Positions 7,462-28,787 of a stretch of 64,000 nucleotides of DNA are shown here, piece by piece. Positions within the stretch are counted from its first letter, which is position 1. Every line of letters begins with the position of its first letter. A program made the translations under genes and the position numbers. The notes beneath the pieces are model-generated. The model did no database searches. It saw nothing but the letters and a program-made list of their open reading frames with translations, and was not told the DNA's origin. Source of the stretch: a bacterium (GTDB taxonomy: Bacteria; Electryoneota; Electryoneia; Electryoneales; Electryoneaceae); the NCBI GenBank assembly GCA_963675295.2, contig CAXXKJ010000002.1, positions 3,488,001 through 3,552,000 of the forward strand, written 5' to 3'.

Positions 7462-8994
7462 ATGACCGAGAATTTTGCGAAGCAACCCTCCCCCGAAGAA
7501 CTACAGCGGGATATCCAGAACTTTCTCAAGGACAAGTACGGTGCGGACGCAGTCCATGCCGAAGTCGACACCCTCGGCGCGAAGGAAATGGAAAGCACGC
7601 CGAAGGATGACGAAGAGATCGTCATCGATTTCGACATGACCCCGCGTGAACTGGAAGAATACCTCAAGGAGTATGTCGTCCGGCAGGAGGACGCGATCGA
7701 GGTGCTGGCGACCAAGGTCGCGACGCACTTCAACCGCATGCGTTGGGAACGGGAAGAAGGCAAGACGTGGAAACGCATTCCCGGGCAGATCAAGCCGAAC
7801 GTGCTGATGATCGGTCCAACCGGCGTCGGTAAGACCTACATCATCAAGCTGATCGCGGATCGATTGGGTGTGCCGTTCGTCAAGGGTGACGCGACCAAAT
7901 TCAGCGAAACGGGGTATGTCGGCGGTGATGTCGAGGATATGGTGCGCGACCTGGTGCGCGCGGCCGGCGGCAACATCAAGCAGGCCGAATATGGCATCAT
8001 CTACATCGATGAGATCGACAAGATCGCAGCAAGCCAGGGGCTGGCCGGGCCGGATGTCAGCCGCTCGGGCGTGCAACGCAACCTGCTCAAGCTGATGGAA
8101 GAAACCGACGTCGAACTGCGTGTGCCGCACGACCTCGCCTCGCAGATGGAAGCGGTGATGGAAGCGCAGCGAACCGGCAAGGCGCCGCGAAAGAAGGTCA
8201 ACACGCGCAACATCCTGTTTATCGTCAGCGGTGCGTTCAACGGGCTCGACGACATTGTGAAACGGCGGATGAACCGTCAGCCGATTGGCTTCGGCGGAGA
8301 TGTCGACACTCAGGTGAAGCACCGTGACGACCTGCTCAGCTTCGTCACCACGCAGGACCTGATCGATTACGGCTTCGAGTCGGAATTCATCGGCCGGTTG
8401 CCGGTGCTGGCACGGCTGGAGGATCTGGACACGGACGGCCTGTACGAAATCCTCTCCAACGATTTCAACGCCGTCACGCAGGGTAAGATCCGTGACTTCG
8501 CGGCGTATGGCATCGAGCTGAAGTTCGAGGATGACGCGTTGCAGCTGATCGCGCGGCAGGCGTACGACGAGAAGACCGGCGCGCGTGGGCTGACCCGTGC
8601 GGCAGAACGGGCGTTGATCACGTTCGAGAAACACCTGCCGTCAACCAGCGTGCGCGAATTCACGTTGACCGCGGAGGCGGTGAAGAATCCGAAGCCGGTG
8701 TGCGCAGAGCTGGTGTTCAATGCGACAGTGCGGGACGCGGTGCTCGAATTCAAGGAACAGACGGGGATTATCCTCTCCCTGACATCGGCTGCAAAAAAGT
8801 GGTTGAGCGAGGAAGCGAATCGTGTCAACAAGACACCGGGCGAGCTGCTACTGAATACCTTCGCGCCGCTGCACTACGCGTTCAACCTGCTGAACCAGGA
8901 ACAGGTGCGCGTGACGAAAACCTTGCTGCAGCAACCGAAACAGACCATCGAAGCGATGATCAAGAAGAGCTATCAGCCAAGCAAAGATGACTGA
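7462..8994 (+). CDS. clpX: ClpX-like AAA+ ATPase lacking the N-terminal zinc finger
   Basis: GPTGVGKT, GYVGGDVE, IYIDEIDK, IGF loop (PIGFGG), EFIGRLP, TGARGL. Confidence 0.75.
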   Translation: MTENFAKQPSPEELQRDIQNFLKDKYGADAVHAEVDTLGAKEMESTPKDDEEIVIDFDMTPRELEEYLKEYVVRQEDAIEVLATKVATHFNRMRWEREEGKTWKRIPGQIKPNVLMIGPTGVGKTYIIKLIADRLGVPFVKGDATKFSETGYVGGDVEDMVRDLVRAAGGNIKQAEYGIIYIDEIDKIAASQGLAGPDVSRSGVQRNLLKLMEETDVELRVPHDLASQMEAVMEAQRTGKAPRKKVNTRNILFIVSGAFNGLDDIVKRRMNRQPIGFGGDVDTQVKHRDDLLSFVTTQDLIDYGFESEFIGRLPVLARLEDLDTDGLYEILSNDFNAVTQGKIRDFAAYGIELKFEDDALQLIARQAYDEKTGARGLTRAAERALITFEKHLPSTSVREFTLTAEAVKNPKPVCAELVFNATVRDAVLEFKEQTGIILSLTSAAKKWLSEEANRVNKTPGELLLNTFAPLHYAFNLLNQEQVRVTKTLLQQPKQTIEAMIKKSYQPSKDD

Positions 8995-9031
8995 CGGGCT
9001 CTGGGCTCTGGGCGAAAAGGAAGCCAAAAGA

Positions 9032-9061
9032 ATGGCCGTGTCAACTTGAAGACACGGCCAT
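9032..9061. terminator. Hairpin between convergent genes
   Basis: ATGGCCGTGTC-8nt-GACACGGCCAT, perfect 11-bp stem. Confidence 0.7.
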
Positions 9062-9095
9062 CTATTTACTCAAAAACTCACCACTCACAACTGCG

Positions 9096-10463
9096 TTACT
9101 TCTTCATCTCCTCCTGCACTTCGATGCGTTCGACGAACTTGATGTCGAGACCTTCGAGTTCCTTGAGGATCGGGGTGTAGATGGCGGCGTGGATCGGGAT
9201 ATGTGACCCCGTGAGCTTCAACTGATCGGTGAGAATCAGCTTGACCGCGATTGCGGCGGGCAGGCCGACGGTTTTGCTCATGGCGGTTTCACCGCCGGCG
9301 TCCCCGTACTTGATCATCGTGCTGATGATCTTCTCGCTCGGGCGTGGCTTGGCAGCGTCCGGGTAGTCGACCAGCATCTTGTGGACGAGGATGACCATGT
9401 CGCGGCCATTTTCGGGCAACGCGAGTTTCTTCGAGATGAGGTGGACCATGGCATCGGCCGGAGTCTTGCCGGTGCAGCCGCATTTTTCGTCGTCGAAGAG
9501 CCCGAGCCACTCGAGCTTTTTCATCGTGTAGCCGGTCGCATTGATGCGCAGGTAGTTGGCGACACGCAACTTGATGTCGGACCCGTTCACATGGGGCGGC
9601 AGGCACATTTCGACAATGTCCCGCATACTGCGATCGTGCAGGTTGGGGATGGTCAGCTCGTCGTTGGTCAGGCCGAGGTTGATGATCGGCAGCCAGCTTT
9701 CCGCAAAGGACGGATTGCGCAACGTGCCCCGGATCATGGTGACAGCGTGCTGCAGGCCGAACAGGTCTTTGTAGGCGAGGCTGTCGCGGTTCGGGTAGGC
9801 TTCCAGGGTGCCGATACCGTCCACATCCACCGGCCACGTCTGGCGGAACACCTGATGGTAGGGCAGGATCTTGATCATCCCGTCCTCGAGGTACTGTGCG
9901 CCATTTCCGCCGGCGACAACGACGTTGTACGGATTCCACGTGATGACGTATTCGAACGGATTCGGGTCTTCGTCGTTGGCGGGTAAGCCGGACCCGTAGG
10001 AGACGAACTTGCGGATGACGCCGCCATCGGAACGGACGCGTGAAATAATCTCCTGGGCGCTCATCAAGTCGATGCCGGGATCGAGGCCGGTTTCATTGAG
10101 GATGAGCACGCCTTCCCTTTTCGCGGTCACGTCCAGCTCACGGATTTCCTTGCTGCGATAGGACGCGCTGACCATGTGCACGCCGTGCTGCACGCACTCA
10201 TAGGCTACCTGGTACTGGAAACGCGGGGCGAGGAAGTTGACGACGACGTCCGCATTCTTCACCTGGTGCTCGACCATCGACGGGTCAGTCACATCGAAAA
10301 AGATCGCAGTACCCTTGGGATGGTCGCCGACGCGTTCTTTGGCGGCTTCCTGATTGTAGTCGCCGACGGTGACGAACCAGTCGTTTTCCGCCGCGTTTTC
10401 GAGCAGGTAGCGAATCAGGCTGGGCGAGCTCTTGCCCGCGCCAAGGACGAGGATGTGCTTCAT
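9096..10463 (-). CDS. Saccharopine dehydrogenase family protein
   Basis: ILVLGAG Rossmann motif, GLDPGIDLM, EAYPNRDS, RGTLR, AMSKTVGLP. Confidence 0.92.
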   Translation of the reverse strand: MKHILVLGAGKSSPSLIRYLLENAAENDWFVTVGDYNQEAAKERVGDHPKGTAIFFDVTDPSMVEHQVKNADVVVNFLAPRFQYQVAYECVQHGVHMVSASYRSKEIRELDVTAKREGVLILNETGLDPGIDLMSAQEIISRVRSDGGVIRKFVSYGSGLPANDEDPNPFEYVITWNPYNVVVAGGNGAQYLEDGMIKILPYHQVFRQTWPVDVDGIGTLEAYPNRDSLAYKDLFGLQHAVTMIRGTLRNPSFAESWLPIINLGLTNDELTIPNLHDRSMRDIVEMCLPPHVNGSDIKLRVANYLRINATGYTMKKLEWLGLFDDEKCGCTGKTPADAMVHLISKKLALPENGRDMVILVHKMLVDYPDAAKPRPSEKIISTMIKYGDAGGETAMSKTVGLPAAIAVKLILTDQLKLTGSHIPIHAAIYTPILKELEGLDIKFVERIEVQEEMKK

Positions 10464-16048: not shown

Positions 16049-16202
16049 TGCCGCTCCGTGTGCCGCGTGTCTCGTTCGTGTTGAAACTACACGCTGAGAT
16101 GCAGGAGGCAAGAGGGAATTGAGAGACGGGGGGCGAAGAGATTTAAATGGCTCAATGAGATTTGTGAGTCGATTTTCGCATTTCAGAGGTGCAGCAGAGA
16201 TC

Positions 16203-17528
16203 CTACTCTTTTTTTGTCGGATACGGCGATTCACCAACTAGCTCAATGCTGTAGGACCGAACGCCGATCAAACTGCTCAATGCAAGTTCAAGATCGACCA
16301 GCGACCTTCGACTCTCATCAGCGGAATGAATCAACTTAGAAATCCAGACCGTCATTGTCCTTTGACGCTTTAAATTGCCAAATCCCGGTTTGAGTACAAG
16401 GTCAACTATATTAAAATACTGCCGAAGTAAAACACGTGTCACGGCATAGATCTGACCCGGGACATCGATGGTAACAATTTCAAGGATTAGCTCTTCGAAT
16501 TTTCCTTCCGTACTGGACTTCGGAATCAGTTTCCGTACGGTTGTTGTAAGATCCCACTTTCGTTTATAAAGATTTAACATCTTTTTTTCTTCCTTATCCG
16601 GCTTGTACACTTCCATTTTAAAATCTGTCGGCTTATTTGTGTCTACCGAATCCTTACTAAACAACTTTGCCATAAATGCGGCCAGATCTAAATCAGATGG
16701 CGGGTTATATTTTGACTTGAAAGTAACATAGATCGATGCCATAGATGTATATATAGAGGAAGAATGAGATACATGCAAAATATTGATGTTATTTGAAAAG
16801 AAATACATAGATAGATAGTGTATTAGACCAATAAAGTCAGGCCCATTGTAACGAGCCACATGTATATTATTAAATTCAGTATGATCATCGTCAACATATT
16901 CTTTATATTTTTTGAAATCTATATCTATTCTGTCCATAATTTCCCTTCTTTTTCTTATTATCGTTAATTTTATAGCCTTATCTTTACTATAATAGACTAA
17001 CGGTTCTTTTTCATCTGTTGTTGCATCTTTAGCCATCAACCTACCAACCGTTTTAGCGTTTATAGTATTTTCAAATTCTTTTAGAATCCATTCAGGAAGG
17101 AAATCATTAAGGTACGGATGTTTTTTATCCTTATCCTCGAATTTCCACAACGATGAATCCGGAACTTTCCAGTAAATATTGACAACAGGCTCATCATAAG
17201 CACGATCGACATCGGTTTCAGAATAGTTGTATTTTTTGAAGGTTTTGTACTCGTATTGAATAGGTGTTTCGTTCGTATTATTGTACGGGATACTTCTTTC
17301 TCCCTCTGTCAGGTAGTACAGTAGCACGAGGCGATCCGCGTTTTTCAGCAGATTGTCCACCACATCCTTCAGTTTCGTTTTATTCTCATCTCTATCGTCA
17401 ATTTCTCTGGGATCGGCTTCGAAGAACAGGGGACGATACCCATTCATACACAGCATGTGGACTGTATCCTTCCGTTCCTGTAGGAGCTCAGATACTCGTG
17501 AACTAACGAACACACTGATCGGATCCAT
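16203..17528 (-). CDS. DUF4062 (TIR/NDT-like) domain plus two C-terminal ACT-like domains
   Basis: VFVSSRVSELLQER...TPIQYEY (DUF4062 pattern); GPDFIGLIHYLSMYFFSNNINI and TIDVPGQIYAVTRVLLRQYFNI (ACT pattern); AT-rich. Confidence 0.7.
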   Translation of the reverse strand: MDPISVFVSSRVSELLQERKDTVHMLCMNGYRPLFFEADPREIDDRDENKTKLKDVVDNLLKNADRLVLLYYLTEGERSIPYNNTNETPIQYEYKTFKKYNYSETDVDRAYDEPVVNIYWKVPDSSLWKFEDKDKKHPYLNDFLPEWILKEFENTINAKTVGRLMAKDATTDEKEPLVYYSKDKAIKLTIIRKRREIMDRIDIDFKKYKEYVDDDHTEFNNIHVARYNGPDFIGLIHYLSMYFFSNNINILHVSHSSSIYTSMASIYVTFKSKYNPPSDLDLAAFMAKLFSKDSVDTNKPTDFKMEVYKPDKEEKKMLNLYKRKWDLTTTVRKLIPKSSTEGKFEELILEIVTIDVPGQIYAVTRVLLRQYFNIVDLVLKPGFGNLKRQRTMTVWISKLIHSADESRRSLVDLELALSSLIGVRSYSIELVGESPYPTKKE

Positions 17529-17614
17529 CGTTATACTCCCTGATGAAAGACTGATAACATATCTCTAATGAATAATCAACACAAAGTAAATAGAAGGTTT
17601 AAAAGAAAATAAAC

Positions 17615-18140
17615 TACCCCGCAGCAAGCTACGGGGTATCGACTACTCACAGCTCAAGTCGACTTTGATGTAGCGGCTGGTAGTTAGCTTCTGTACCTTG
17701 GTTCATAACGTATTTTCTGATTGTATTTTCGTCACCGTGCGGACCTACGGTGGATATATAATAACCTTTTGTCCAAAATTCCCCACCCCAGAGCTGCTTT
17801 TTAACTTTGGGTTGTCGGATAAACATCTCTCGTGCTGTTATGCTCTTTATAGTTCGTACTAATTTTGTAGCACTCATGGTTGGCACGGATTGCACTAAGA
17901 AATGCACATGATCTCTATCTATTCCAATTTCTATAAATTCTATTTCATAACGTTTTTGGATTTCAAAGCAGATATCCTTTAATGTTAAATCTATCTCAGG
18001 TTCATCAAATACAACACGACGGTATTTCGCTACACATACAAGATGGTATAGCAATATCGATACGTTGTGTTGTTTTCGGATCAGCTCAGACATTCCACAA
18101 GAAACCAACTGCAGCTGGCCGAAGCAAGCTTCGGGGCATC
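17615..18140 (-). mobile_element. IS200/IS605-family element, tnpA only
   Basis: Y1 transposase flanked by related hairpins TACCCCGCAGCAAGCTACGGGGTA (17615-17638) and CCGAAGCAAGCTTCGG (18119-18134). Confidence 0.88.
17647..18093 (-). CDS. tnpA: IS200-family HUH (Y1) transposase
   Basis: YHLVCVAKYRR, DHVHFL (HUH), FWTKGYY, IRKYVMNQ. Confidence 0.95.
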   Translation of the reverse strand: MSELIRKQHNVSILLYHLVCVAKYRRVVFDEPEIDLTLKDICFEIQKRYEIEFIEIGIDRDHVHFLVQSVPTMSATKLVRTIKSITAREMFIRQPKVKKQLWGGEFWTKGYYISTVGPHGDENTIRKYVMNQGTEANYQPLHQSRLEL

Positions 18141-18451
18141 AACCGCACTGGAGTGAAATTCATATGCGCTTTCACAAATACCAGATGATGTTAGTCTATA
18201 AATAACAGATGTCTAGCACATAGTTTAGACTCTCCTAATAATATTGGCATGCAGTGAATGGCCATTCACAAGATAATTGGACCTGCAGCGAATATGGTTT
18301 TCTGAGGATCATAAATAGAAGTATATCCCCACAAGTCATGTAAAATATTCGGTATGGTCAGCCAATTCCTACCAGTCGAAGCTGCACAGAGTACCGGGGA
18401 CACTTAACGGAGTAAGTGTCCCCGGTTGCGGATAACAAATTGATTACGTGA

Positions 18452-19231
18452 TCAGCACTCGATGCCGTGAGCTTCGGCGACACCGGTAAGCAGGCCGTTG
18501 ATGGCGTCGAGGGCCTCGCTGGTGGCGGCGAGGACTTTTTGCGCCTCATCGGCAGATTCCCGACCCACGGACTGAAGTCCGTGGTAATTGCCATTGGATT
18601 CCACCTCCACGGACTGAAGTCCGTGGTAAGACTCTGCCGGATTCGACGTGACGCGTTCCAGCATCGCGCGTTCGGCGGCGGAATGTTCGACGTCCGCGAC
18701 GATATGCTCGGTGAAATACTCCCACGCGCGTTCGTCGGTGAACCCGTAGAACTCCTTCAGGCCGTCGATTTTCGACTGCGACACCGCCGGGATCTGGGAC
18801 TCGTAGGCATACAATGCGGCCAAACCTTCGGCGACGGAGCGGTTCGCGCAGATCTCCCGGAACGTGCGGATGGTGGCCTGAGTGTGCGAGTTGGCGGCGG
18901 TGGATTCGGCGTCCTGCGCAGTCATGCCCAGCCCCTCGGCAAACTGCAGCCACAGCTCGGGGTGGGTCGGGGCAGAACCCTCTTCGTCGTTGAGGTTCTC
19001 GGTCAGGTGGCGGCGGACGTCGAGGTCCTCGGTGTGGGCGTGCAACGCGCTGATGTAGGTCGGGAACGCCTTGACGTGCTGGTAGTACTGGCCGGCATAG
19101 TCGCGGAGGGCGTCGAGGCTGAGTTCGCCGGCGGTCCACGCCTGGTAGAACGGGTGCTTGAGCAGGTGCTTGGCCTGAATCAGGTCGTCGATCCGGTCAA
19201 TCAAACGGGTCGCTTCGAGGGTTGCGGGCAT
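18452..19231 (-). CDS. CADD/PqqC/TenA-like heme-oxygenase-fold di-iron protein
   Basis: HLLKHPFYQAW, NLNDEEG, HPELW, YAYESQ, YFTEHIVADVEH. Confidence 0.88.
   Translation of the reverse strand: MPATLEATRLIDRIDDLIQAKHLLKHPFYQAWTAGELSLDALRDYAGQYYQHVKAFPTYISALHAHTEDLDVRRHLTENLNDEEGSAPTHPELWLQFAEGLGMTAQDAESTAANSHTQATIRTFREICANRSVAEGLAALYAYESQIPAVSQSKIDGLKEFYGFTDERAWEYFTEHIVADVEHSAAERAMLERVTSNPAESYHGLQSVEVESNGNYHGLQSVGRESADEAQKVLAATSEALDAINGLLTGVAEAHGIEC
18565..18629. repeat. Two identical REP-like palindromes inside the CADD gene
   Basis: CCACGGACTGAAGTCCGTGGTAA at 18565 and 18607 (42-bp spacing, 9-bp perfect stem). Confidence 0.85.
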
Positions 19232-26763: not shown

Positions 26764-27723
26764 TTAAAATTCGATGTATTGAAACAATTTTTGTTCAGAT
26801 TCTGGTAGCCGAGATATCAGTTTAACGTAATAACGCCGATTTATCGGCTTTATAAACGAAAGATACCCATATATTTTCATCCTCATCATTTTTTTGTCAT
26901 CAGTATCATTTTCTAACTTATTGTAGTGATATATCATTGATCGTATTGTACGGTATTTTCTCCTACCAACACTAACTTTATCATCATGTACTATTAAACC
27001 AGTTACTAATTTTCTCATTCCCGGCCCCATGATCCTTGTTTTCTCACTGTTTATTTTAAATTCTTCATCATTTACTATTTTTCCTACACCAATTCTTGCT
27101 TTACAAATCAGTTTTATATTATTTCCAGATATTGACATATCATCCGCGTATCTGCTATACGAAAGGCCTCTGGTTTTACAGTATCTATCTATTCTCTTAT
27201 CCATTATTTTAACTACTAAATTTGAAATCGCTGGTGATGTGGGAGCACCTTGAGGGAGCACTCCATTTCTTGTACAAAGTTTTGAAAGCATAAATGCAGC
27301 TTTATTACTGTATCCTAAATATCTGAATAGTAAGAATACGCGTTTTAAAGTAATACTGGGAAAAAAATCCTTTATATCAAGACATAATACAAATTTATTT
27401 CCCATATGAGCCTCTGCATTATCTATTATTGAGTATCCATATCTAAACCCTGTTGCATTATCGGGTAAATATATGCCAACTGGATCTAATACTCGTCTTA
27501 ATATCCATTTTTGTATCCCCTTCAACGTTGTTAATGGCGCATCTATGGCTCTATTTCCTCCGTTCTTTTTTTCAATATTAAAATGTATATAATATCTTGA
27601 TGAATCTTTAATAATATTAAATAATAAATATTTTGAAACACGTAATAAATAACTTAGCTCTTCCAAGGAATCGAAATCTGGAAGTTCCTCTACCTGGGCA
27701 ATATGTTCTGCAATCGGATCCAT
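26764..27723 (-). CDS. Retron-type reverse transcriptase
   Basis: YADD catalytic motif, LPQGAPTSPAISN, retron region X NAEAH (NAxxH), region Y VTGL; 319 aa. Confidence 0.95.
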   Translation of the reverse strand: MDPIAEHIAQVEELPDFDSLEELSYLLRVSKYLLFNIIKDSSRYYIHFNIEKKNGGNRAIDAPLTTLKGIQKWILRRVLDPVGIYLPDNATGFRYGYSIIDNAEAHMGNKFVLCLDIKDFFPSITLKRVFLLFRYLGYSNKAAFMLSKLCTRNGVLPQGAPTSPAISNLVVKIMDKRIDRYCKTRGLSYSRYADDMSISGNNIKLICKARIGVGKIVNDEEFKINSEKTRIMGPGMRKLVTGLIVHDDKVSVGRRKYRTIRSMIYHYNKLENDTDDKKMMRMKIYGYLSFIKPINRRYYVKLISRLPESEQKLFQYIEF

Positions 27724-27738
27724 GACTGTTTAAAAAAG

Positions 27739-27892
27739 GGATCGGAGTGAACTTTCCTAACTCTGAGAAATCCGTCAACTAAGCGACAGCCGAGCGAAGG
27801 CTGTCGCTTAGTTGAACGAGAGATGCTACATAACCTCATGGACGGCGCAACACCATCCGTAGTGTTCTAAGGAAGTGTAAACACTCCGATCC
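27739..27892 (-). ncRNA. Retron msr-msd non-coding RNA
   Basis: Perfect 11-bp a1/a2 repeats (GGATCGGAGTG at 27739-49, CACTCCGATCC at 27882-92); 17-bp msd stem 27775-27815; msr stem GGAUGGUG-UUG-CGCCGUCC; CCUUAG candidate branching G at 27867. Confidence 0.88.
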
Positions 27893-27899
27893 GCAGCCC

Positions 27900-28787
27900 T
27901 CAATAAGCATCTAGAATGTAGTTGCTTCGAATTAAATCAAAAGATGTAGAATGTTGTATTGTCTTTTTAACCAATCCTGACACAAAAGCATACCCTTGAC
28001 TTGTAATTTCATAATTATACCCCTGTACTTTTAAATACAAATCATTTATTAAAATATTTAACGATATAGGGATATTTTCATCTGCAACTTTTTGTGAATC
28101 AGGTATATTATGCAAATCAAGTAAGTATTTATACGCATCTATCAATATAGGTTCCGGAAACATATCAACAAATGAAGAGAAAAACAAGACAAAAAACTTT
28201 ATCTCAAGAGGATTTGATATAAAATCTTCTAATGATGTCTTCTTATCTCCAACAATTTTCCTTACTGCACTATGAATGTTTTTTATGATCTGCTTGCTGT
28301 ATTCATCGCTTAATATATTATCAAGATCATAGTATATAATTATGGAATCAGTATGTTTATCAAGATATCTAACGGGACCTTGCATTATAAAACTATTAGC
28401 ATTTTTGTATTGTTCATCAACTAAAACTATTAATTTATCTTTAAGTTTTTCATGATTTGTGAAGGATCCTAGCTCTGTAAAAGATCCAGGACTCTCTGGT
28501 ATGATTAAAACTGACTCCACACTTGACGCTAGTGTATTTTCTAATTCTAGTAGATTATATTTTTTACCTCTATATAGTAGATCTGTAAAAATATGTTCAG
28601 GATAATACACTTCTACATCAAAACCATATGCCTTTATTTCTAAAAGCCTATTTTTTATAATTTTTCTGATTGATTCTTGTTCATTAATGCTTTTACCAAC
28701 AATAAATAATTTTATCCTTTTTTCTATTAGGCTAGGATATATAAGGTCTAATGTATCCCTTGCTATATTTCGAGTCGTCGAATTCAT
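27900..28787 (-). CDS. Retron effector, NDT-like N-terminus plus wHTH-like C-terminus (Ec86/St85-like)
   Basis: YYPEHIF, NLLELENTLA, IIPESPGSFTELGSF, SFIMQGP; C-terminal YEITSQG; abuts the ncRNA. Confidence 0.85.
   Translation of the reverse strand: MNSTTRNIARDTLDLIYPSLIEKRIKLFIVGKSINEQESIRKIIKNRLLEIKAYGFDVEVYYPEHIFTDLLYRGKKYNLLELENTLASSVESVLIIPESPGSFTELGSFTNHEKLKDKLIVLVDEQYKNANSFIMQGPVRYLDKHTDSIIIYYDLDNILSDEYSKQIIKNIHSAVRKIVGDKKTSLEDFISNPLEIKFFVLFFSSFVDMFPEPILIDAYKYLLDLHNIPDSQKVADENIPISLNILINDLYLKVQGYNYEITSQGYAFVSGLVKKTIQHSTSFDLIRSNYILDAY

Follow-up and report, generated by a model that had tools for sequence, protein, structure and literature searches.

Proteins with a DUF4062 domain were described as defence effectors in three preprints of 2026, whose main texts are the basis for what follows. 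In the Swarozyc preprint (10.64898/2026.05.01.722283), DUF4062 is a TIR-like NADase, human TEP1 is also a NADase, and KpSwz is an autoinhibited tetramer whose activator is the phage portal. The NIR preprint (10.64898/2026.09.04.749371) reported Glu-dependent NAD+ depletion by PsAvs2, by Vulcan, which joins NIR to HEAT repeats, and by Vesta, which consists of a small NIR protein and an alkaline phosphatase, and found NIR genes near defence genes in 20.0% of cases compared with 3.9% expected. The Evangelion preprint (10.64898/2026.06.25.731849) described systems of one gene that combine a DUF4062 core with an auxiliary region that has diversified, and in which the conserved residues F11 and E87 were studied. 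Glutamate-dependent defence with NAD+ depletion is thereby reported across the DUF4062 proteins KpSwz, PsAvs2, Vulcan, VstA, Eva01 and TEP1, and DUF4062/NIR as a TIR-like NADase effector common to bacterial defence and human TEP1 has been known only since 2026. Here we describe a gene from a 64,000-nucleotide stretch (the window) of a contig from a bacterium of the phylum Electryoneota, in which a DUF4062/NIR domain is fused to a tandem of ACT domains (Table 1). A sequence-only reading of the locus had treated DUF4062 as a NAD-cleaving conflict domain, and the three preprints give that view experimental backing.

The gene product is read here as a one-protein, Evangelion-like abortive-infection NADase of the DUF4062/NIR class with a tandem ACT sensor, to which we assign a probability of roughly 0.45. 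The frame around the gene is open over 453 aa with no internal stops, the gene is present as a single copy in the source genome, and the translated open reading frame (ORF) includes VFVSSRVSELLQERK, PLFFEAD, ADRLVLL, TPIQYEY, GPDFIGLIHYLSMYFFSNNINI and TIDVPGQIYAVTRVLLRQYFNI. A word-indexed homologue search returned one homologue only and an exhaustive phmmer search against 1.84 billion cluster representatives returned 50 clusters at E <= 1e-3 and 29 at E <= 1e-10 with the query counted, the proteins being mostly 350-390 aa in length. The window protein is longer than these relatives because extra residues are inserted behind the catalytic core and again between the two ACT units. Three conserved blocks were present in an alignment of 36 family proteins, with invariant columns at R19, E37, G76, P89, E93, P357 and G358 and near-invariant columns at K20, P33, D231, G234, N249, E414, G422 and V423, and every family-invariant residue is retained in the window ORF. 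In a Pfam scan of the 36 members, DUF4062 was matched by 30 (best E 5.5e-11) and ACT by 33 (best E 2e-10). Several members pass the DUF4062 cut-off, including P0006 (33.0 bits) and those of loci L010 (29.4 bits) and L011 (28.0 bits), and the homologue in L040 reached 44.5 bits for ACT against a cut-off of 27. The agreement on these domains across profiles, homologues and folds is far above chance.

The N-terminal domain is predicted to be a NAD+ glycohydrolase using Glu93, and both the NADase chemistry and a defence role are suggested by homology to the tested DUF4062 proteins. The family profile aligned with Eva01, for which the DUF4062 gene of pMW2 was used, at a probability of 95% (hhalign, E 3.8e-8, 117 columns) with F7 opposite Eva01 F11. 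F7 and E93-Y94 are conserved across the family, and E93 was present in 36/36 and 34/34 aligned sequences of two alignments. By their Pfam end coordinates, E93 of the query, E82 of P0006 and E87 of Eva01 are all located at profile position 78 with the next Tyr at 79, a mapping accurate to about one residue, the end coordinates of L016 being off by one. A Q/W/E motif has been described for DUF4062 cores including that of Evangelion; the residues Q50-W51-E52 of Eva01 are opposite a K..MD stretch in the family, of which the acidic position D55 alone is kept. The solved TIR/DUF4062 chain of KpSwz (10wc_A) was matched by the family profile at E 1.2e-4 over profile positions 2-69, ending at chain residue 72. 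With an N-terminal-only profile of five sequences searched against the PDB, KpSwz was found only at E 0.064 with chance ankyrin-repeat matches on top, and the 36-sequence profile is the better PDB test.

Structural comparisons used a full-length AlphaFold2 model based on the alignment of the family (mean pLDDT 78, pTM 0.82) and a second model of residues 1-215. With VIA-align, residues 1-207 of the former were superposed on DNPH1 with Z 13.7 (root-mean-square deviation (rmsd) 2.2, 127 aligned) and on the TIR domains of RRS1 (Z 11.1), SPARTA (Z 11.0) and RUN1 (Z 10.2), and CMP N-glycosidases and nucleoside 2-deoxyribosyltransferases (NDTs) were also matched. TIR domains were the top Foldseek matches of the 1-215 model, for which a wide VIA-align comparison returned an NDT at Z 11.9 and TIR-1 at Z 10.9.

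The C-terminal half of the full-length model has the beta-alpha-beta-beta-alpha-beta pattern twice, once in each of the ACT domains listed in Table 1. The family profile matched the plant AHAS small subunit (E 6.9e-8), and Foldseek placed tandem-ACT regulators on top for this half, including the IlvA regulatory domain, 2nyi, GcvR, SerB2 and aspartate kinase. By VIA-align the half was closest to the aspartate kinase ACT tandem (Z 13.2, 173 aligned) and the isoleucine-bound IlvA regulatory domain (Z 12.8), while ACT2 alone was superposed on the valine-bound AHAS regulatory subunit with Z 10.0 (up to 10.3), rmsd 1.5 and 24% identity over 78 aligned residues and on the Ser33 ACT domain with Z 10.7 and rmsd 1.6. 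Conservation in this half peaks at both beta1-alpha1 loops (D231/G234 and P357/G358) and in the alpha2-beta4 region of ACT2. The beta1-alpha1 loops are the amino-acid ligand sites in ACT-regulated enzymes. As the loops that bind ligands are the most conserved, a ligand-binding rather than a purely structural role is argued for the tandem. A profile of the ACT tandem only returned matches that were all fused to DUF4062, 26 near the usual length and 2 longer including the query, indicating that this sensor is not seen shuffled onto other effectors. The sequence-only reading had proposed a TIR/NDT-like DUF4062 N-terminus, a Glu at the usual position and two ACT-like C-terminal units. These proposals hold in the family-level Pfam matches, in the alignment with Eva01, in the invariance and profile position of E93 and in the folds, structure prediction having returned both TIR/NDT and ACT folds, and all the motifs that it quoted were recovered in the 441-aa ORF.

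In the mechanism that we propose, the ACT module would keep the TIR-like domain inactive, and a small ligand that binds to, or leaves, the two beta1-alpha1 loops would release or assemble the enzyme. Such gating by a small molecule and control of oligomerisation are suggested by the biology of ACT domains only, and the switch by a metabolite change that the sequence-only reading had put forward is likewise a proposal. The ligand event would be linked to the change in oligomeric arrangement on which the activity of TIR-like NADases depends, residues 1-207 would then hydrolyse NAD+ via Glu93, and the NAD+ depletion would lead to growth arrest of the infected cell, that is, to abortive infection. 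A two-copy full-length prediction (alignment A1, score 0.11, mark 0.42) speaks neither for nor against self-association. The more specific proposal that the ACT tandem reads the host amino-acid pool and directly gates assembly of the TIR-like NADase is tentative and on the unlikely side; alanine or a related metabolite is one candidate ligand because the gene repeatedly lands beside alanine dehydrogenase, as described below.

The window gene is flanked by a TenA-like gene and a GT2 glycosyltransferase gene and was acquired as a single-gene cassette of approximately 1.7 kb. In the same-genus genomes G001 and G002 the TenA-like gene abuts the GT2 gene with the terminator hairpin and approximately 100 bp between them, and a freshwater-sediment metagenome contig (run X6) joins window position 16133 to 18450. 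These empty sites identify the insertion as approximately 16134-18394, and no direct repeats of at least 12 nt were found flanking the island. The guanine plus cytosine (GC) content was 0.31-0.44 over approximately 16200-18400 compared with approximately 0.60 on both flanks and in the genome, and GC at third codon positions (GC3) was 0.40 for the DUF4062-ACT gene compared with 0.73-0.87 in neighbouring genes. The locus had been described from the letters alone as an AT-rich 441-aa gene beside an IS200 element, and the ORF, the low GC, the neighbouring Y1 transposase and the cassette with its empty sites bear out this description and the single-gene, mobile character of the locus.

The hairpin at 18393-18426 (perfect, with 14-nt arms) serves the TenA-like gene as terminator and is a repeated element in its own right, and the left edge of the inserted island coincides with it exactly. 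Read depth at this hairpin spiked in two runs (1286 and 2242), and many contigs end loosely there. Within the adjacent TenA/PqqC-like gene (18452-19231, reverse strand), two tandem in-frame 20-nt palindromes with a spacing of 42 nt are located in the C-terminal coding region (18555-18629). This palindrome had 108 strand-matches genome-wide at up to one mismatch and the reversed control had none, and a related metagenome contig is without one of the copies as it skips 42 nt. It looks like a REP-like element that is tolerated within coding sequence.

The family is rare and patchy in distribution. No match to the protein query was present in 40 relatives (0/40), and among 79 genomes of the phylum of the window the family profile had four matches, of which only the one in the source genome itself (G000) had the full architecture, the DUF4062 part alone being covered in the three others. 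An ordinary DUF4062 protein of 360 aa is encoded in genome G043 of the same phylum (L016, 1489-2571, forward strand; Pfam E 3e-24), with a SYVQMEY motif and a non-ACT C-terminus, and so other DUF4062 architectures exist in this phylum. At E <= 1e-20, carriers were found in 2/401 Acidobacteriota genomes, and in the family of one of these carriers in 1/151 genomes, which was the carrier itself; closer homologues were present in metagenome-assembled Acidobacteriota genomes. The GC content of the gene was below that of its surroundings in L010, L011, L013 and L014, and of 12 metagenome loci, 11 had a gene GC lower than the flanks and one had equal values. As the family is small and largely found in uncultured soil and sediment bacteria, it probably escaped model-organism screens.

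The IS200 copy is a separate element that was inserted later into the upstream region of the cassette, 78 bp before the ATG. Its ends were fixed by eight near-identical genomic copies (the window and L003-L009), seven with 100% identity over the aligned length and one with 99.8%, and this identity implies recent activity; no obvious shared target motif was present in the flanks of the eight copies. The right end of the element features a terminator-like hairpin and T-run (17638-17615) facing the DUF4062-ACT gene, and a scan with the sigma-70 consensus only found no sigma-70-like promoter between this hairpin and the ATG. The terminator-like end therefore separates the gene from its probable native promoter region, and expression may be reduced. 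We consider it improbable that the gene in the window has been silenced or is decaying because the IS200 cut off its promoter, whatever the family does elsewhere. The arrangement of the element, the divergence and extra insertions of the window protein, and a second sample of the same organism in which the gene is 100% identical and the IS200 is at the identical site would all fit such a fate, but the ORF is intact and has kept all of the family-invariant residues, and the promoter scan covered a single consensus.

Gene neighbourhoods were compared at 18 distinct loci, namely the window, L010-L014, 11 metagenome loci in which the identical L022 and L023 were counted once, and L040, while L024, L032 and L034-L037 were excluded from the neighbour counts as too short or partial. 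The locus search was made with a narrower alignment (A3), and the loci that it yielded are biased towards one subfamily. No neighbour was conserved family-wide among the 18 loci. Known or candidate defence genes were located near the DUF4062-ACT gene in six. In the window this is a type II-A retron, 9 kb from the gene and within ten genes, which forms an AT-rich island of its own (Table 1); an Rfam scan of the whole window returned nothing at threshold and thus no msr/msd RNA for the retron. The others were a GmrSD/HEC-06 type IV restriction enzyme directly downstream in L026 (E 1.6e-132), a HEPN_AbiU2 gene directly upstream in L029, PDC-S33 (E 1.4e-124) together with a TIR protein in L031, a TIR/ThsB-like gene in L033 and PDC-S09 in L020. 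Transposase or integrase genes adjoin the DUF4062-ACT gene in the window, L010, L026 and L031.

Two further candidates were rejected as defence genes. A RecQ protein in L011 that matched DpdF models has RQC and HRDC domains and is a housekeeping RecQ, and the match of an NHL-repeat protein in L010 to PD-T4-6 was read as repeat similarity. Directly upstream of the gene in L010, from a metagenome-assembled Thermoanaerobaculia genome, a tyrosine recombinase of the phage integrase family is split between two overlapping ORFs (8341-9881, forward strand). In L040 (1514-9443), the G174 homologue is preceded by an uninterrupted run of six ORFs (115-829 aa) for which neither Pfam nor PADLOC gave a match at E <= 1e-5 and which may form an uncharacterised island.

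Table 1. Positions of the gene, its domains and associated features; coordinates are those of the window unless a locus or residues are named
Feature	Position	Strand	Remarks
DUF4062/NIR - tandem ACT gene	16203..17528	-	intact, 441 aa; GGGAG ribosome-binding site precedes ATG
DUF4062/NIR TIR-like (flavodoxin-like) domain, residues 1-207	16908..17528	-	Pfam, conserved columns, fold searches
Glu93 GAG codon (within TPIQYEY), predicted catalytic glutamate	17250..17252	-	sequence and family invariance
Tandem ACT module	residues 214-441
ACT domain 1, residues 222-308	16605..16865	-	beta1-alpha1 loop GPDFIG; D231, G234 near-invariant
ACT domain 2, residues 343-433	16230..16502	-	beta1-alpha1 loop IDVPGQ; P357, G358 invariant
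Inserted AT-rich island, ~2.26 kb	16134..18394	.	1.71-kb one-gene cassette plus IS200; between TenA-like terminator hairpin and GT2 promoter region
IS200 copy, 551 bp	17607..18157	-	tnpA 17647-18108 (-), Pfam Y1_Tnp E 4.1e-36
Type II-A retron, AT-rich island	26764-28787	-	GC3 0.20-0.24; 9 kb from gene, within ten genes
Retron reverse transcriptase	26764-27723	-	PADLOC RT_II-A E 3.9e-104
Retron NDT-like effector	27900-28787	-	PADLOC NDT_II-A E 2.2e-60
Alanine dehydrogenase, L011	8132-9247		upstream
Alanine dehydrogenase, L023	1544-2656		downstream, 53-bp gap
Alanine dehydrogenase, L028	1667-2782		downstream

Several points weigh against the protein being a defence NADase with an ACT sensor. On its own, the query remained below the Pfam cut-offs, with 21.5 bits against 24.7 for DUF4062 (PF13271, E 2.6e-4, residues 6-93) and 16.5 bits against 27 for ACT (PF01842 clan, E 7.4e-3), and it is the most divergent family member, with 28-33% identity to the others and the longest branch of the tree. 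An NCBIfam scan of the protein gave a sub-threshold ACT match only, and a protein atlas search gave weak DUF4062 leads only (score 0.76). Both domain assignments are nonetheless settled, because the homologues and the family profile match. A PADLOC 2023 scan of the protein gave no match, which is uninformative since Eva01 was likewise unmatched in PADLOC 2023. In the local hhalign alignment, Eva01 E87-Y88 was shifted by two residues from E93 onto Q91-Y92, with a gap of three residues behind the pair. Since the family keeps E93 without exception but not Q91, this was read as an ambiguity of register, and the register of the catalytic motif thus depends on the Pfam end coordinates. DNPH1, a dNMP N-hydrolase, outranked the TIR domains as a structural match (Z 13.7 compared with 11.1), which suggests that the substrate could be a nucleotide other than NAD+. 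Among viral contigs, 16 stretches fitted the search patterns and none was a confirmed homologue. Twelve of the 18 loci had no recognisable defence neighbour, and alanine dehydrogenase was the immediate neighbour in three and a class I/II aminotransferase was located upstream in L021, L022 and L023. Finally, the characterised DUF4062 systems, as presented in the main texts of the preprints, sense phage proteins or processes and not metabolites.

This last point bears on what the ACT tandem does. The protein may be a defence NADase in which the tandem reads no metabolite and instead serves as a scaffold for oligomerisation or autoinhibition or offers a binding surface to a phage protein, in the manner of the auxiliary domains in characterised DUF4062 systems. 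ACT domains commonly mediate dimerisation. The triggers described are the portal for Swarozyc and lambdap79 for Vulcan, while escape mutations of Eva01 implicate phage replication proteins. However, the most conserved C-terminal positions are those of the ligand loops (D231/G234 and P357/G358), ACT2 is superposed closely on a valine-bound subunit, and a surface contacting phage proteins would be expected to diversify and not to hold invariant loop glycines. A scaffold or phage-binding role is regarded as unlikely.

The neighbours with amino-acid functions would instead fit a protein that is not antiviral, namely a metabolic or stress regulator in which an ACT-gated NAD+ or nucleotide N-glycosidase is tied to amino-acid status, possibly to alanine and pyruvate, and which could act in starvation dormancy or in tuning of the NAD pool alongside alanine dehydrogenase. 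The alanine dehydrogenase genes (ald) of L011, L023 and L028 adjoin the family gene, and in L013 an Ala_racemase_N protein is encoded two genes upstream. The three alanine dehydrogenases share only 56-58% identity, and a tree of 16 sequences places the ald-adjacent members in two different clades, both well supported, indicating that the association arose at least twice; the rank of DNPH1 as best structural match is also in keeping with such a regulator. In L011 (genome G079), however, the DUF4062-ACT gene and a VanZ-like gene separate alanine dehydrogenase from the response regulator, while in eight of 12 relatives, including the closest, whose alanine dehydrogenase is 94% identical, the regulator directly follows alanine dehydrogenase (the comparison left out L048, from an unpublished genome). 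The gene in L011 is thus an insertion. The recurrence beside ald could be due to a site that favours insertion or to a functional connection. The extremely patchy distribution, the foreign GC at nearly all loci, the 15 loci without adjacent ald and the position of the window copy between a TenA-like gene and a glycosyltransferase also argue against such a regulator, which we regard as a doubtful explanation.

The sequence-only reading had looked to the neighbourhoods for a defence context, and these gave a divided answer: the six loci with defence genes (window, L020, L026, L029, L031 and L033) are in its favour and the 12 without are not. It had also named confinement of the homologues to housekeeping amino-acid operons, together with the lack of a protective phenotype, as an outcome that would count against it. 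No such confinement was found, the ald and aminotransferase contexts being partial and one of them an insertion.

Should the ACT tandem indeed read the host amino-acid pool, this would be the first antiviral system to detect infection through an ACT domain that senses a primary amino-acid metabolite. As an immune sensor, an ACT tandem would add to those known a ligand-binding module that is classically found in feedback control of amino-acid biosynthesis. The compact protein of approximately 360-440 aa would also allow the ligand, the oligomeric state and NAD+ cleavage to be studied together. The term 'ACT domain' is absent from the main texts of the Swarozyc, NIR and Evangelion preprints, whose figures or supplements may list such an architecture, and from the Metis paper (10.1101/2025.11.05.686725). 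A literature search joining 'ACT domain' with anti-phage and TIR, or with abortive infection and NADase, found nothing. By their titles, the three defence papers listed as naming an ACT domain concern toxin-antitoxin-chaperone, toxSAS and CapRel-type systems, and our guess from these titles is that they refer to the ACT domain found in RelA/SpoT-type proteins. The earlier statement that the architecture belongs to no named system therefore stands in part. Single-gene DUF4062 proteins with an auxiliary region have names (Evangelion, Swarozyc and Vulcan), and DUF4062 systems that combine the effector with a variable sensor are already described, while an ACT auxiliary region or sensor is undescribed in those main texts.

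The closest comparison is with Evangelion, in which a single gene on mobile DNA (Eva01, S. aureus pMW2) likewise encodes a DUF4062 core followed by an auxiliary region at the C-terminus, and the N-terminal Phe and the Glu-Tyr motif are common to Eva01 and the ACT family. The auxiliary region of Eva01, which is needed for function, is a short segment without recognised domains according to the main text, whereas a tandem ACT module is found here, and the alignment with Eva01 is limited to the first approximately 117 columns. Swarozyc also joins a TIR-like DUF4062 NADase to a C-terminal auxiliary domain, with KpSwz autoinhibited until triggered, but the portal-sensing C-terminal domain of KpSwz differs from the tandem ACT and the match ends at chain residue 72. 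In Vulcan the NIR/DUF4062 effector is likewise fused directly to its sensor, although this consists of HEAT repeats. A C-terminal ligand-binding domain is suggested for VstA by the authors of Vesta, which, unlike the gene described here, is a two-gene operon with the alkaline phosphatase VstB; no such neighbour was present in the 18 scanned loci.

Outside the DUF4062 class, Metis MisA is a defence NADase with a small molecule, m6dAMP, as its direct activator, and an ACT-gated NADase would extend this theme of metabolite-sensing immunity, although the PUA-like sensor and the metallophosphatase NADase of MisA are both unrelated to the domains of the window protein. The ACT-regulated enzymes IlvA, aspartate kinase, AHAS small subunit, 3PGDH and SerB2 share the paired ACT domains and the Gly loops (Z 10-13.2) but in them the catalytic domain that is regulated is biosynthetic and its gene belongs to a housekeeping operon, whereas a TIR-like domain on a mobile cassette is found here. 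DNPH1/Rcl, MilB/BcmB and the nucleoside 2-deoxyribosyltransferases gave the best N-terminal superpositions (Z 13.7 to 10.1), but without a match at the level of sequence, where the profiles place the domain in DUF4062, the tested members of which cleave NAD+.

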